A DNA stretch of 34,274 bases. It comes from a virus. The notes beneath the pieces were generated by a model that worked only from the letters and a program-made list of their open reading frames with translations, made no database searches and was not told where the DNA came from. The position numbers and the translations under genes were made by a program. Location of the stretch: the IMG/VR virus record IMGVR_UViG_3300035102_000071. The stretch is one strand, 5' to 3'. Positions 6,464 to 34,274 of this stretch are shown here, piece after piece (positions within the stretch are counted from its first letter, which is position 1; each line of letters opens with the position of its first letter).

Positions 6464-9400
6464 TATTTGCCCCCTGTGAGCGCTGTGGCGCGTTCTGTCT
6501 GTTTATTGATAACCCTATCCCGCAAATCTGGGAACTCTGCTAACATGCGGTCCTGTGCGGCTAAACGGTAATCGCCGATAACGCCCTTGATAACCTCTGA
6601 CTGTAATCCGTCAGGGCCGCTGCTCATATTTTTGAACCCAGGCTGTCCAACGATAGCTTTCAATTCCTCGAAGGCCGGTTGCCCGGCGAGTTCGACGTAT
6701 CGTGAATACTCCTTAGCCGTCAGCTTGACGCCCTGGATTTGCTGCCTTGGCATGGACACGCTGGTCTTGTTGTCCAGTATGGCCTGGTCTACCTGGTTCG
6801 GGTTGTCCGCACTGGCATAAATAGGGGACATGGCATCATATGCCCATCCGATCCTCGAGGCCCTATTGATGTCCCGGCCCCAAAGGTCTTTGCGGGGTGG
6901 CAAGTCCTTCGAATAGCCGGGGACTCTCGACCGGAATTCGTTGGTGATGGCCGCGAGGTATTCGCGGACCGGTTCGGAGATGTTGGGCATATCGGCCACC
7001 AGGGGATCAGCCGCGCTTGTTCGCGTCTGCCTAACCATAGGGTCAAGGGCCTGTGCTACTTGTCTGGTGAGAGAGCTGTATGGGATGAGACTGCCCGCAA
7101 ACTTGAGCAGCCACTTGTCTGGCGTCATGGTCGGGTTTCTGGGGTCCATCGCGCCTATCGCGTCGTACAGCCCTTGAAGGTACGTTTTGCTGGCAAAATT
7201 TTGCGCGAATGCAACAGCCCCGGCAGACACCAAGCGGCCACCTTCTTCTTCATCCAATTGAGAAATTATTTCCGTGATATCGGCTGAAAAACCAATGAGG
7301 GTCCCTATCGGGTCCAGACGGTTGTAGGCGTACCACTTATCTCCGATTTTAAGCGAATACGGCCGCCATCCCTGACGGCGCAAGGATTTTACCTGCTTAT
7401 GATCAGCCGGTCCGGCGCCGGACACCAGCCCGTCAGCGGCGAAATCGCCGACAGTCAACATCAGAGCAGAACCAGAGAGGACCTTGGCCCACGCAGTAGC
7501 TGCCGAGGCACCGCCTTTGCGTATGTCAGACCTTACAGCCCTGGAGGCAAAAGCCAGAGGTGTGCGCTCAAATGTGTATTTGAGTATATTCGCCGGAGTG
7601 CGCATGAAAGGCATGATAAATTTGCCCCCTGGGACTTTGCTGACCAGCCGTTGCAAGGCCTGTCCACGCTCGCCCAACGGGCGCGTAAAGGTCTGATAAC
7701 CGGCGAAGTCGACCCCTTTGTTAATAAGATCATCGGTCGGGTCCAAAGTGAGGTCGGCAATCCGTTCTGCGAGTTCTTTGCCTTCTAGCCCCTCGGACAC
7801 AGCCTGTCGGTACGCCTGCGCGTTGACCTCCATGCGGTATCCGATAGACTTAAAAAGGGAGTCGGTGCGATTTAACAAGCTGCCTGGAGCATTGATAAAC
7901 TTCCCCGAGTAATCAAAAAATTTGCCCCACGCCTTGGCCGGGTCGACCCCAAACGCCTCAGCACTGATGGCGTCTGTATACCCTTCAATCTTGCTGAACT
8001 GCTCAAACACGTCGGCAAGGCCTTCGACCCCTTCGGCCTTCTTGCCTAGGGCAAAAAGTTTTACCCCATCGCGAACGCCCTTCGTGAATCCATACGCCTG
8101 TGCCGCGACTTCCCCGTACTGTATTTCGCCGCGATAAAACACATCCGAAATAGCGGCGGAAAGGTATTTTTCAGGGATAGCCCAGAGAGCGGTTACGCTG
8201 TTCGAGAGCGCGTTGACAAGCTGTGTTTTTGGGCTTGATAGCAAACCGTTAATCCAAGTCTGATAGAATGCATCGCCAAGCTTGGACTTCATGCTCTTTT
8301 GAATTACGAGATTCAACCCTGTGGGGTTGTCCGCTACTTGGACTATGGCCCTTGCCAGTTGCCCGATAGGGGCAGATCCGCCGCTGGAATTCATCAATTG
8401 ATGGATTGCCCCGGCTCTCATTTCGTCAGTACCCGCGGGGATAGCCCATGAACGCAAAGCCCTTGCCGTTTCTGTCCTGGCAGCGAACACTTCGCTCTGA
8501 ATCGCGGAGTGGACGGCCATTGCCCGTCTAAAATTATACATGTCCGCTTTAGTCGCGGAGGGAGAAGAGGCAATCCTCGCAAGATCAGTCAACTGAGACG
8601 CAGATGTATTCAGCACTTCTCGAGCAGCGATAGCTTCCGGGGCGGACATCGGGCCGGGAGCGCGCCCGAGCAAGTCTTCAAGGTTTGTGTAATGCTCTGA
8701 ACTGGCATCAATCATATCCTCGAAGGACATGCGCCCACCAGTTGCTTTCTGAATATCGGATGATTTCAGTTCTGCCATGTTGCGGATCATAGCCTTAACA
8801 TCATCACCGGACTGTATCCTGGAATAATTGATGAAGACCTGATCTTTCGTCTCTGGAAGAACTTCAAACCCCATAGCCTGTTTAACTTCGTCTTCCATTT
8901 GTTTGACACGCAGCACAGCCGCTTCTTCTTCCGACACGGCGGACAAAACCTTAGCCTCTGTGGGCTGTACTTGCCTTATGGCTACATAATCTTCATCCGG
9001 GCGACCGAGACCGGCGGTTATTTCGTCCTCTGCGACAGGCTGTATAAATTCCTTTGCCGAGTCTTCAATGGCATCCTTAGCGGCCTTGTCAGCAGGAGTG
9101 ATGCCTAGATCAGCGGCCTCGAGTTTCAACCGGCGTTGCGCCTTGTAATACTTGAAAGCCCTGCCCAGCCCCTCAGTGGCGATACCAAGGCCAGCCCCTT
9201 CAAGGACGTTCTTCATGCGTCCTTCCCAGGCACTTTGATTCTCTGGATTGGTGTCAGCCAGGTAATCGGGGACGATAGCACCAAGCGCCGGGACTTCATT
9301 CAGGAAGGTGGACAGACGCGCCTCGAATGGATCAAAGGCGACAGCGTCGGCAATCGCGCCAGCCGTCATGGACTGTAAGACAGCACCACCCACACCGAGA

Positions 9401-29230: not shown

Positions 29231-29394
29231 AGATTATGCCTCCACCCCACGTTTCCGATTCGCGAACCACGAACAGACCTTGACCACCCACCCGGGCACC
29301 ACCACCTAGCGACACCTTCAAGGCCGAACAACTCTTCAAGCTCGACCATAAATTCGTCGCTTGAGGCGTCTGAAAAGTGCTTGAACCATCTCAT
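29227..29394 (-). pseudogene. Truncated N-terminal fragment of a second replisome-organiser-like gene
   Basis: MRWFKHFSDASSDEFMVELEELFGLEGVARWW is a typical organiser N-terminus. It then runs into direct-repeat copy 1 in a different frame and ends after 55 codons. Confidence 0.45.
29249..29302. repeat. 54-bp direct repeat, copy 1
   Basis: 29249-29292 is identical to 29840-29883 (44 nt). The next 10 nt carry 2 mismatches. Confidence 0.9.
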
Positions 29395-29396
29395 GC

Positions 29397-29498
29397 TTAA
29401 TTGCCTTTAGGTGTATCCCAATACGCGCTTTTGCACTTAGGACAAATTTTTGGCAAAGAACTATCTTTTTCTATTGCCCATTCATCAAGACTTTTCAT
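29397..29498 (-). CDS. Possible 33-aa zinc-ribbon peptide
   Basis: MKSLDEWAIEKDSSLPKICPKCKSAYWDTPKGN. It overlaps the end of the 93-aa ORF and lies in an AT-rich context. Confidence 0.35.
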   Translation of the reverse strand: MKSLDEWAIEKDSSLPKICPKCKSAYWDTPKGN

Positions 29499-29818: not shown

Positions 29819-29989
29819 TCAAGCATCTTCCACCACCAAACGTTTCCGATTCGCGAACCACGAACAGACCTTGACCACCCACCACGGCACCACGGCATAC
29901 CGCGCCTTCGTGCTGGCGATATCGCGCCGGAGCATGTGCGCATCGTACTTGGCTTCGAGCCAGCGGCGTTTGTAGTGCGGACGAGGCAT
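29819..29989 (-). CDS. Possible 56-aa protein
   Basis: MPRPHYKRRWLEAKYDAHMLRRDIASTKARYAVVPWWVVKVCSWFANRKRLVVEDA. The ATG is 4 nt after the HTH gene stop. The 3' end lies inside direct-repeat copy 2. Confidence 0.4.
   Translation of the reverse strand: MPRPHYKRRWLEAKYDAHMLRRDIASTKARYAVVPWWVVKVCSWFANRKRLVVEDA
29840..29893. repeat. 54-bp direct repeat, copy 2
   Basis: See copy 1. Confidence 0.9.
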
Positions 29990-30303: not shown

Positions 30304-30331
30304 TTGACTGGCGCTCAGGATTTGATATTCT
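30304..30331 (+). promoter_or_regulatory. Sigma-70-like rightward early promoter candidate
   Basis: TTGACT (30304-30309), a 16-nt spacer, and an extended -10 TGaTATTCT (30323-31). It sits in the only AT-rich stretch of the divergent region. Confidence 0.4.
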
Positions 30332-30340
30332 GACTTCACC

Positions 30341-30519
30341 GACGCACGAGAACACCCCGAACACGCTGCGCAGACAGCCAGCAAGTAGGGGCACCGGGCG
30401 GAGGTAACGCCAGAAGGCCGCAACAGAAAGCCCGCCCGCAAGGGGAGAACGGGAAGTCCACGGGAGGCCAGGCGTAGGAAACGCCGAACAGGACACAGAC
30501 AGGGAAGGAGAGGACAGGC
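30341..30519 (+). promoter_or_regulatory. T-depleted purine/C-rich 5' leader of the rightward operon
   Basis: Hand count gives 5 T in 179 nt. There are nine GGA triplets, and the region ends in the GGAGAGGA RBS of the first rightward gene. Confidence 0.5.
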
Positions 30520-33037: not shown

Positions 33038-33235
33038 ATGAATAAGCTCAACACCAATATCAACATGGCAGAACCGAGCCGCGAGAAACTGCGTCAGCTT
33101 GGCCGTGACGCCCTCGCCAGCAAATTCCGCAGCGCGGCCTTGCAGTGCACCCTGAAATTCAGCCTGAACGCCGACGACATCAACGAGGTGGCCTGCGAGA
33201 TCGCCAGAGAGATCGAGGCCTACACCGACGAGTAG
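33038..33235 (+). CDS. Hypothetical protein (65 aa)
   Basis: AAAGGAGA RBS (33022-33029) upstream of ATG 33038. Confidence 0.55.
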   Translation: MNKLNTNINMAEPSREKLRQLGRDALASKFRSAALQCTLKFSLNADDINEVACEIAREIEAYTDE

Positions 33236-33256
33236 GACGTCGAGGAATGGGGATCT

Positions 33257-33337
33257 ATGACCCAGGAGGAGCGGGACAAAGAGTGCCAGGACGCAATGTG
33301 GGATATGGTCGAGTGGGGATACGACACGGAAGGATAG
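33257..33337 (+). CDS. Possible 26-aa ORF
   Basis: GAGGAA lies upstream of ATG 33257. Translation is MTQEERDKECQDAMWDMVEWGYDTEG. It is very short. Confidence 0.25.
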   Translation: MTQEERDKECQDAMWDMVEWGYDTEG

Positions 33338-33902
33338 CAACCTACTGAACGATCTTTTAATTTTGCTCCGGGTCAGGAGAAAAACCCCATGCCGTGATTG
33401 GTTAGAGCCGCGTCACGACATGCAGGGCGGCGCAACCACAAGACCAACTCATTGGAGCAAAACAAGTCCCGGCTTTGTCCGGGCAGCTTGAGCAAAGGGG
33501 CCGCTCGCCGGTAAGGGCGTGTCAATACCTCGGCAGATGATGGTCACGCCGCCCCAGCTTAAATTTGATCTTTGACAATCGATGTTTTGAAGGAAGGCGG
33601 CGGCGTGGAAAGCTGGGGGAATTTTGTGTGCCCCCTGGAGACACGCAACTGCATTGGGGAGTAAAGGTGGCCTCTGTACCCACCGGCATAAAGTCGACGA
33701 GCCAATGTGGTCACTTGGGCAGCATTTGAGCCGGAGTAGCGCCCGGCCCGCCTTCCCCCAAAGCACCGAAGGACAGAAGTTCGAAGGTCGGTGCCTCCTG
33801 CGGTCTGGGTGGTCCAGGCCGTTGGAACAGTCCCTCGGAGGGGCGGCGCTTTTAGAGGTTTATCTCCGCGCCGCCCGGAAACAAACGAATGGAGAAACGG
33901 AA
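33338..33902 (+). ncRNA. ORF-free, GC-rich, stem-rich region: candidate structured RNA or long structured 5' leader (unclassified)
   Basis: No plus-strand ORF exceeds about 23 codons. I found at least six GC-rich stems (33463-33490, 33545-33607, 33615-33635, 33666-33684, 33763-33794, 33841-33876). It is the largest gap in an otherwise overlapping-gene genome. Confidence 0.35.
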
Positions 33903-34274
33903 ATGAAGGCAATACTCGACGGAAGCCATCTGGTTATTGACGGCGAGCGTTTTGATTTGGGCGGCTCTCTGTACCTGCGCGGCACCGGCATCACCTCGCT
34001 GCCCGACAACCTGACCGTGGGCGGCTATCTGGACCTGGAAGGCACCGGCATCACCTCGCTGCCCGACAACCTGACCGTGGGCGGCTATCTGGACCTGCGC
34101 GGCACCGGCATCACCTCGCTGCCCGACAACCTGACCGTGGGCGGCTATCTGGACCTGGAAGGCACCGGCATCACCTCGCTGCCCGACAACCTGACCGTGG
34201 GCGGCTCTCTGGACCTGGAAGGCACCGGCATCACCTCGCTGCCCGACAACCTGACCGTGGGCGGCTCTCTGGAC
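33903..34274 (+). CDS. LRR-like tandem-repeat protein, 5' part (continues in frame at the window start)
   Basis: GGAG (33891-33894) lies 8 nt before ATG 33903. MKAILDGSHLVIDGERFDLGG is followed by 20-aa units. There is no stop before the window end. Confidence 0.8.
   Translation, partial: MKAILDGSHLVIDGERFDLGGSLYLRGTGITSLPDNLTVGGYLDLEGTGITSLPDNLTVGGYLDLRGTGITSLPDNLTVGGYLDLEGTGITSLPDNLTVGGSLDLEGTGITSLPDNLTVGGSLD
33961..34274 (+). repeat. 60-bp tandem repeat array, part B (5.2 units)
   Basis: Units start at 33961, 34021, 34081, 34141, 34201 and 34261. They are identical outside three codons. Confidence 0.95.

Follow-up and report, generated by a model that had tools for sequence, protein, structure and literature searches.

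A putative Nus-factor leader module with a boxA-like element in the early operon of an uncultivated podovirus-like phage

The gap and its genomic setting

The virus genome IMGVR_UViG_3300035102_000071 (IMG/VR) contains a 565-nt gap without called open reading frames (ORFs) at 33338..33902 on the plus strand, between a 27-codon ORF and an LRR-repeat gene. The sequence analysed, 34,274 nt long and referred to here as the window, is a complete, circularly closed phage genome, and this gap is its largest (the remaining gaps measure 170-365 nt). The original prediction for the locus, made from the sequence alone, described a GC-rich, stem-dense region, for which a large structured non-coding RNA, a long regulatory leader and an origin or packaging site were put forward as possible roles. 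The gap appears to be composite, and its 3' part is read here, at roughly even confidence, as a leader for Nus factors similar to those of lambda nut sites and ribosomal RNA operons (rrn), displaced to an internal site upstream of the LRR gene.

The 27-codon ORF upstream of the gap terminates with TAG (33335-33337). Downstream, a ribosome-binding site (RBS) GGAG (33891-33894) precedes the ATG of the LRR-repeat gene at 33903 (together 33891..33905, plus strand), and the homologue P0071 begins at the same Met. The gap is identical in seven other contigs of the same phage, and no population variation was found in it among the same-phage contigs. These contigs are 34,245-34,397 nt long and are all broken at the same spot, the assembly having been opened within the 60-nt tandem repeats of the LRR gene, which starts at 33903, runs past the window end and resumes at 53-727. 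As the contigs differ in length and share a breakpoint inside the repeats, the LRR repeat number is not fixed by the assemblies.

Podovirus-like structural genes encode a head-tail adaptor, tail proteins and an internal virion protein, and TerL is a distant relative of those of BcepC6B and Mx8. The early region is lambdoid in layout, with two divergent operons, a Cro-like regulator, an O-like initiator and exo/RecT. The leftward operon contains a small helix-turn-helix regulator, small genes, the O-like replication initiator, a DnaB-like helicase, VRR-NUC and lysis genes. The rightward operon runs from its promoter through a 182-nt leader, a 97-aa gene, an 89-aa gene, the exonuclease, RecT, a 65-aa gene, the gap and the LRR gene to a Dam-like methyltransferase and small genes. 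Its promoter and leader occupy 30304..30519 on the plus strand, the promoter being sigma-70-like (TTGACT-16-TATTCT, 30304-30331).

Coding potential and transcription signals

The gap is real and non-coding. No gene caller placed a gene inside it in any of the eight contigs of this phage. A codon-usage log-odds score trained on 15 long genes of this genome is below zero in all six frames across ~33340-33850, compared with +0.07 to +0.33 for real genes and +0.36 and +0.41 for the two flanking genes, for which values of +0.35 to +0.47 were also obtained. There were no matches for nine gap ORFs in Pfam and PHROGs, for six-frame gap segments in a tblastn search of 50,697 phage records, or for the gap itself in a blastn search of phages and plasmids. 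The earlier statement that no plus-strand ORF exceeds about 23 codons is correct for ATG starts but not for TTG and GTG starts, which give ORFs of 42, 38, 54 and 49 codons. The gap is not GC-rich relative to its surroundings, its GC content (56-59%) equalling that of the adjacent genes.

A missed or decayed protein gene, such as a degraded LRR paralogue, would account for the long open frames in the gap (two minus-strand frames of 136 and 116 codons, and the LRR frame, which stays open for 104 codons 5' of its ATG), and 33666-33696 does weakly match one LRR repeat unit (local alignment score 30, reached by 15 of 500 shuffles). However, this explanation is highly improbable given the negative coding scores in every frame and the empty Pfam, PHROGs and tblastn searches. 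The six frames also have no match to a profile of 120 LRR-family homologues, and nhmmer with the 60-nt repeat returned nothing. The 136-aa open frame, searched with HMMER against 1.84 billion representative proteins, has just two weak multi-stretch matches and no match to itself, and so was never called by gene callers.

No plus-strand sigma-70 promoter in the gap reaches the scan threshold; thus the simplest source of an LRR transcript is read-through from the early promoter. Neither was a plus-strand intrinsic terminator found in the gap by the scan, and a terminator-like hairpin lies on the minus strand (33483-33468). A rut (Rho-loading) site was considered and rejected, as there is no C-rich, G-poor window in the gap; its plus-strand RNA is G-rich (C/G at most 1.17) and therefore a poor substrate for Rho loading.

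Homologous leaders in two related phages

Relatives of the gap were found by scanning IMG/VR with exact patterns taken from its helices. The pattern of a 9-bp hairpin retrieved one related phage, L036, and the 17-mer TGTTTTGAAGGAAGGCG retrieved a second, L039. In both, the counterpart of window 33566-33850 is part of the 5' leader of an early operon, 150-200 nt past the early promoter, and boxA itself stands 145-170 nt past a sigma-70-like promoter. By this homology the 3' 60% of the gap (~33566-33902) is an early-operon leader module, so that the option of a long regulatory leader, one of those originally put forward, is the best fitting: its 3' ~340 nt are homologous to the early 5' leader of two related phages and carry a boxA-type element and a conserved long-range stem.

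In L036, a CI-like (S24 peptidase) repressor gene and a terminator are followed by the promoter TTGACT-16-TATTCT and a leader 72% identical to window 30325-30482. Next come GGTTCTTTGAAAC, which includes the boxA, a tRNA-Ser(UGA) at 7735-7824, and CAATCGGTGTTTTGAAGGAAGGCG, which equals window 33576-33599 with one difference. After 98 nt without significant similarity to the window, a block of 157 nt is 100% identical to window 33746-33902 and leads into the LRR gene. In L039, the promoter is followed by a leader resembling window 30340-30416, by GGTTCTTTGACAATCGGTGTTTTGAAGGAAGGCGGCGGCGTGGAA (97.6% identical to window 33569-33610), by ~125 nt of unrelated sequence and by a block 82% identical to window 33730-33844. 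The leader ends with sequence resembling 30484-30516, and the first gene and a homologue of the window 97-aa gene follow. This 97-aa homologue is 83% identical, compared with 97.6% for the block containing boxA and the adjoining stem arm.

The module shared by the three phages consists of boxA, an adjoining 22-nt stem (P1), a phage-specific insert between the arms of P1, and conserved hairpins 3' of P1. The homology, the position in the relatives, the boxA match, the conservation of the stem arms and the variability of the interior can all be read directly from the aligned sequences. In the window, ~3.2 kb separate the early promoter from the module, which follows the recombination genes and precedes the LRR gene; the window early leader is homologous to those of L036 and L039, but is without their boxA/P1 module.

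Two further features of the relatives concern inserted sequences. The tRNA-Ser(UGA) of L036 is inserted precisely between boxA and the 5' arm of P1. Within the P1 insert of the same phage, 7906-7945 contains a near-canonical T-arm (GGCGG-UUCGAGU-CCGC) and a 6-bp acceptor-like flanking stem; the element, possibly a remnant of a tRNA, is not called by ARAGORN. In L039, the gene that directly follows the leader (3235-3010, minus strand) has a long tandem AAWAAARD/AAARAAAW repeat, and thus encodes a repeat protein where L036 has the LRR gene.

Other searches gave no further copies of the module. The H6 hairpin pattern (see below), scanned against species-representative genomes and IMG/VR, found no relatives other than L036 and L039. 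With RecT as a synteny anchor, relatives are at most 65% identical, are not syntenic and have different downstream genes. The 65-aa gene has just three homologues among 5.8 billion proteins, and in two of these the next gene is 27-29 nt away. In the third (L010) the gene has 91% DNA identity, and of the 232-nt gap behind it only the first 25 nt recur in the window. At the loci of LRR homologues in L005, L006 and Edwardsiella phage Edno5, the gap sequence is absent or cut by the contig end.

The boxA-like element

The boxA-like element GATCTTTGACAA (33567..33578, plus strand) matches the rrn-leader variant GTTCTTTGAnAA at 11 of 12 positions, the difference being T to A at pattern position 2. 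The corresponding element of L039, GTTCTTTGACAA, matches at all 12 positions, and that of L036, GTTCTTTGAAAC, at 11 of 12, with the mismatch outside the 8-nt boxA core as defined in PMC3177189. Whether the variant is a genuine boxA was assessed by scanning one genome per species for GTTCTTTGAnAA at 110-140 nt upstream of the 16S 5' sequence AGAGTTTGATC. It occurs at this distance in at least 120 genomes (own chance estimate ~2), and the matches listed span Actinomycetota, Bacillota, Bacteroidota, Acidobacteriota, Ignavibacteriota, Elusimicrobia and others. The variant agrees with the gamma-proteobacterial boxA consensus GYTCTTTAANA (PMC5725501) save for one G in place of A; Aquifex boxA also has G there, and exchange of the two purines at this place is regarded as tolerable (PMC3177189).

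The element stands on the plus strand in a non-coding gap of the rightward operon, that is, in the orientation of transcription. Only two matches to the boxA pattern with at most one mismatch occur in the window (expected 0.37), both in sense orientation and in long gaps of the divergent early operons. The site in the 565-nt gap is the only copy in the rightward operon, the early leader of the window having no boxA. The second boxA-like element, GTTCTTTGCCAA (29450..29461, minus strand), has its 8-nt core intact. It is located 24 nt past the stop of a 93-aa gene (the third of the leftward operon), in a 254-nt gap upstream of the O-like replication gene.

The P1 stem and associated hairpins

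The 5' arm of P1, UCGAUGUUUUGAAGGAAGGCGG (33579..33600, plus strand), directly adjoins boxA and is 96% conserved in L036 and 97.6% in L039. It pairs with the 3' arm CCGCCUUCCCCCAAAGCACCGA (33748..33769, plus strand). P1 is the longest inverted repeat of the region and, in each of the three leaders, the best one of 22 nt, and is present in both the minimum-free-energy fold and the three-sequence consensus fold. As with rrn-type stalks, it is a long-range duplex of about two turns that stands beside boxA and closes an enclosed RNA. In L039 the arms pair at 21 of 22 positions, a value reached by none of 200 shuffles. At position 33582 the window has A (an A.C mismatch), and both relatives have G (a G-C pair); at 33758 the window has C (again A.C), and L039 has U (an A-U pair). 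The fold z-score of the P1 domain is -3.98 in L036 and -2.11 in the window.

P2 (33602..33647, plus strand) is formed by GCGUG (33602-33606) and CACGC (33643-33647), and in the window its loop contains a phage-specific GGGGG/CCCCC hairpin (33615-33635). L039 has the same P2 stem with an 8-nt loop, and L036, when aligned by hand, retains it with an A-U pair in place of one G-C pair. P3 (GCCGG-AGUAGCGC-CCGGC, 33730..33747, plus strand) adjoins the 3' arm of P1; it is identical in L039, and L036 has a different hairpin there. Downstream of P3, H5 (GCACCGA/UCGGUGC, 33763..33794, plus strand) is retained in L039 as a stem with a G-C to G-U change and a shorter, different loop. The 5' arm of H5 is the outer 7 nt of the 3' arm of P1, and the outer part of P1 and H5 are therefore mutually alternative pairings; in L039 the two competing strands are an identical heptamer, UCGGUGU. 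H6 (CGGUCUGG-GUGGU-CCAGGCCG, 33801..33821, plus strand) has invariant stems and a different loop in L039. The last element is a perfect 9-bp hairpin (GGGCGGCGC/GCGCCGCCC, 33841..33876, plus strand), 14 nt upstream of the RBS, that is common to L036; L039 has a hairpin of similar size and other sequence.

All six helices listed in the original prediction do occur at the coordinates given there, although the second of them (33545-33553 with 33599-33607) conflicts with pairings kept in the relatives and is probably not the relevant one, because its nucleotides belong to the conserved P1 and P2. The picture of a region packed with helices is not borne out, as folding does not exceed chance for the base composition. 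For the whole region, the fold z-scores of the plus and minus strands are -1.67 and -2.58, respectively, and in ten overlapping 120-nt windows they range from +1.34 to -0.96 (plus) and from +0.78 to -2.30 (minus). The failure to recognise an RNA class by eye was upheld: with all 4227 Rfam families, the whole window gave no match at the gathering threshold, and at E-values up to 10 the sole match was a 15.5-bit snoRNA. The L039 module gave only noise against Rfam, and no tRNA or tmRNA was found by ARAGORN or Infernal in the window or L039. There is no support for a large non-coding RNA of a new class standing on its own: no Rfam family matches, folding is no better than chance, and neither the 5' 228 nt nor the stem interior is conserved.

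The arms of P1 are conserved in the three phages, and the 100-150 nt of the interior cannot be aligned. The 147-nt insert of the window (33601..33747, plus strand) is, save at both ends, unrelated to those of L036 (~100 nt) and L039 (~145 nt). Such wholesale exchange between retained arms would suit a discrete small RNA, produced from the P1 interior (33601-33747) or elsewhere in the gap and freed by processing from a leader that serves as its carrier. The tRNA-Ser in the same leader of L036, the T-arm-like hairpin in its P1 insert and the minus-strand terminator-like hairpin at 33483-33468 point the same way. Even so, a small RNA is unlikely: neither the window nor L039 has an Rfam or tRNA match, the inserts have no sequence similarity to one another, a promoter was not found, and 33630-33749 has no fold signal (z = +1.1).

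The 5' part of the gap

The remainder of the gap differs in origin. A 25-nt block, CTACTGAACGATCTTTTAATTTTGC (33342..33366, plus strand), is 92% identical to L010 and is simply where a recently exchanged module, to which the 65-aa gene also belongs, comes to its end. A weak sigma-70-like -10 sequence, TTTAAT (33356-33361), lies within it below the scan threshold. A metagenome scan with a 20-mer from this block, TGAACGATCTTTNAATTTTG, was not informative: the locus inspected among its 16 matches (L015) is in ABC-transporter coding sequence, and the 16 matches show no additional similarity to the window, several having the same second-match spacing. From 33367 to 33565 (plus strand), no homologue was found anywhere searched; this part has hairpins at 33393-33419 and 33463-33490 and a local fold z-score of about 0. 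With no relatives found for the 5' 228 nt as a whole (33338-33565), this stretch is most simply read as junction sequence from the recombination that joined the recombination-gene cassette to the leader.

The octamer GGGCGGCG has six copies in the genome, four of them in the gap (33425, 33547, 33841 and 33869) and in both orientations, which exceeds chance. This enrichment produces several of the helices listed in the original prediction, and an inverted pair of the motif is found at 33425-33438/33541-33554. A site acting at the DNA level, such as an origin, a site of packaging or attachment, or an array bound by a protein that recognises GGGCGGCG, could explain this concentration of copies around an AT-rich patch (33559-33595), and the octamer equals the first 8 nt of the lambda cosN cohesive end. 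Such a site is nevertheless very unlikely. An origin or packaging site here, as suggested earlier, is unlikely because the O-like initiator and helicase map to 27.1-29.2 kb and the terminase genes to 20.7-24.1 kb; TerL is related to those of BcepC6B/Mx8-type phages, and no integrase was found among the window proteins scanned. Moreover, the spacing of the motif is irregular (122, 52, 242 and 28 nt), and three copies are not kept in L039. Every LRR repeat unit likewise contains GGGCGGC (GTG GGC GGC), and the likeness of GGGCGGCG to both lambda cos and this unit is judged coincidental. Lambda-cos-like, REP-like, CRISPR solitary-repeat, retron, DGR and attP readings were dropped, as partner genes or matching geometry were lacking.

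Comparison with known antitermination systems

In rrn leaders, the polymerase retains NusB/NusE on boxA along with NusA, NusG and SuhB; a proposed role of these factors is to loop the nascent RNA and aid formation of the 16S RNase III stalk, and they can block Rho (PMC4807359, PMC5725501). The same host factors are used by lambda at the nut sites of both early operons (PMC2724277, PMC3177189). The module resembles an rRNA-operon leader in having the boxA variant of many bacterial rrn leaders, in the placement of boxA directly beside the 5' arm of a stem whose long-range pairing encloses a structured RNA (PMC4807359), in being long and untranslated, and in having a tRNA inside in L036, as in rrn operons. 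It differs in that the enclosed RNA is 100-150 nt long, unrelated between phages and not rRNA, that it sits in a phage mRNA upstream of protein genes, that no boxB or boxC was identified in it, and that the window boxA has a core substitution.

Likeness to lambda nutL/nutR is seen in the single boxA-like site in each divergent early operon of the window, in the position of boxA in the leader of the relatives, 150-200 nt past the early promoter, and in the lambdoid layout of the window (Cro-like regulator, O-like initiator, exo/RecT). P2, a 5-bp GC-rich hairpin with a GAAG-containing loop ~25 nt after boxA, is also reminiscent of nut. Lambda has, in addition, an RNase III-sensitive stem between nutL and N. 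However, no boxB in the form of a 5-bp stem with a GNRA-like pentaloop, which in lambda is bound by the arginine-rich motif of N, was found a few nucleotides past boxA: P2 starts 24 nt later, and in place of the pentaloop has an 8-nt loop (L039) or a 36-nt loop with an inserted hairpin (window). In contrast to lambda, no N homologue is known here, and the rightward site of the window is internal, 3.2 kb from the promoter. The module boxA is furthermore of the rrn type, and not of the weaker lambda type (PMC3177189).

Three other groups of elements share single features with the gap. GOLLD, ROOL and HEARO RNAs are likewise several hundred nt long, non-coding, phage-borne and sometimes tRNA-adjacent, whereas the gap has no Rfam match at E-values up to 10, no conserved multi-domain fold and only partial conservation. 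CRISPR arrays have a boxA at the start of an untranslated transcript. In the suhB 5' untranslated region (UTR), boxA starts a ribosome-free stretch that would otherwise be exposed to Rho, as in the module (PMC5725501). Unlike the module, the boxA elements of the suhB 5' UTR and of CRISPR arrays are without an adjoining long-range stem and are cellular rather than phage-borne. Overall, part of the region is best read as a putative Nus-factor/boxA leader, rrn-like rather than lambda-like in design, with unexplained junction sequence as the remainder, and the region does not represent a new RNA class.

Proposed mechanism and alternatives

By analogy with these systems, Nus binding, antitermination, RNase III cleavage and an effect on LRR expression are predicted for the module. 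The boxA would recruit host NusB/NusE(S10) and other Nus factors to the transcribing polymerase, which would render transcription of the long untranslated stretch Rho-resistant and keep boxA tethered to the polymerase. The 5' arm of P1, right behind boxA, would pair with the 3' arm ~150 nt later, and the Nus complex would promote this pairing. P1 would then close a small multi-helix domain as a two-turn duplex of the size of RNase III substrates, and a possible RNase III cut would separate the upstream message from the LRR message. Alternatively, the outer 3' arm of P1 may pair with the downstream strand of H5, giving two alternative folds, and additional hairpins would stand ahead of the RBS of the LRR gene.

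Several observations weigh against this mechanism in the phage itself. The boxA mismatch of the window falls inside the 8-nt core, with the purine A where rrn boxA has C or U. P1 pairing in the window and in L036 (19 of 22 positions, including G-U) was reached by 51 and 68 of 200 shuffles, respectively, which is chance level, and the P1 of the window has one mismatch more than that of either relative. Although related regions were obtained from L036 and L039, as the original prediction had called for, covariation is almost absent: across the three sequences there is one compensatory pair (in P2) and otherwise one-sided changes, because only three sequences are available, of which two do not differ in the 3' block. 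No homologue of the N antiterminator was found in Pfam or PHROGs scans of the window proteins, and the module is not at the start of the transcript in this phage. The boxA core change and the P1 mismatch are both derived; they would weaken the predicted function, and decay fits them as well.

Decay is what would be expected if the LRR gene came from an L036-like phage together with the tail of its early leader, the leader now having no specific role and the 5' 228 nt being recombination junk. This history of hitch-hiking is a possible explanation, held with clearly less than even confidence. Recent transfer is indicated by the 100% identity to L036 over 33746-33902 and the start of the LRR gene; homology breaks abruptly at 33746 and at 33576-33599, the window-specific changes fall in the boxA core and a P1 pair, and local folding energies are at chance level. 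The LRR homologues in L006 and Edwardsiella phage Edno5 have only 6-94 nt of upstream spacer, suggesting that an LRR gene needs no such leader, and in the P0071 homologue 6 nt separate the start from the upstream gene. On the other hand, phage genomes seldom retain more than 500 nt of useless DNA, the block of boxA and P1 is 97.6% identical to L039 compared with 83% for the neighbouring 97-aa gene, and it is the sole boxA copy of a rightward operon whose early leader has none. If the module is a relic only, it is an ordinary outcome of mosaic recombination.

A more elaborate role can be envisaged for the leader module, in which it would be a phage-borne mimic of an rRNA leader and a swap-in platform, Nus factors holding the 5' arm until synthesis of the 3' arm and RNase III then cutting the P1 stalk to free a phage-specific cargo RNA that acts on the host or on phage gene expression; this we consider improbable. 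If the simpler Nus-factor leader is correct, uncultivated podophages with a lambdoid early region use a host rrn-type boxA and a long-range stem to carry polymerase through untranslated stretches and to process the early transcript. To our knowledge, antitermination signals of this sort have rarely been characterised outside enterobacterial lambdoid phages. The fusion of boxA to a stalk whose interior is exchangeable (with a tRNA in the leader of one relative) would, if true, also offer a compact model of Nus factors chaperoning long-range RNA pairing. In practice, a search for boxA and for similarity to early leaders should come first when a long empty gap is met in a phage early operon, and only then should a new RNA class be named.

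Other features of the early region

The first ~150 nt of the early leader (window 30338-30482; L036 7547-7719; L039 4021-3941) are 72-88% conserved in these three otherwise mosaic phages. This start of the leader, rich in purines and without ORFs, may harbour additional regulatory RNA elements.

In the leftward operon, a 56-aa protein (window 29819-29989, minus strand; with a similar start in L010 1369-1566) opens with the arginine-rich MPRPHYKRRWLEAKYDAHMLRR. Its N-terminus recalls the motif with which the N antiterminators of lambdoid phages bind RNA, a tentative lead. Through a direct repeat of ~60 nt (29240-29300 and 29838-29900), the 254-nt gap of the leftward operon (29231-29484) contains a second copy of the C-terminal half of this gene. 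This gap may therefore hold an uncalled small paralogue of the 56-aa gene, downstream of the second boxA-like site.

The 65-aa gene upstream of the 565-nt gap (window 33233-33337 region) stops at a TAG where its three homologues have CAG (Gln). The 27-codon ORF (33257-33337) is in frame with the 65-aa gene and has a mildly coding-like score of 0.18. The TAG could be a recent nonsense mutation, the point of a read-through extension, or the boundary of a separate mini-gene.

The LRR family combines 20-aa LRR-like repeats with a conserved C-terminal domain of ~150 aa and has more than 225 homologues of unknown function. At the phage loci examined (L006, Edno5 and L036), genes of this family sit in early regions.

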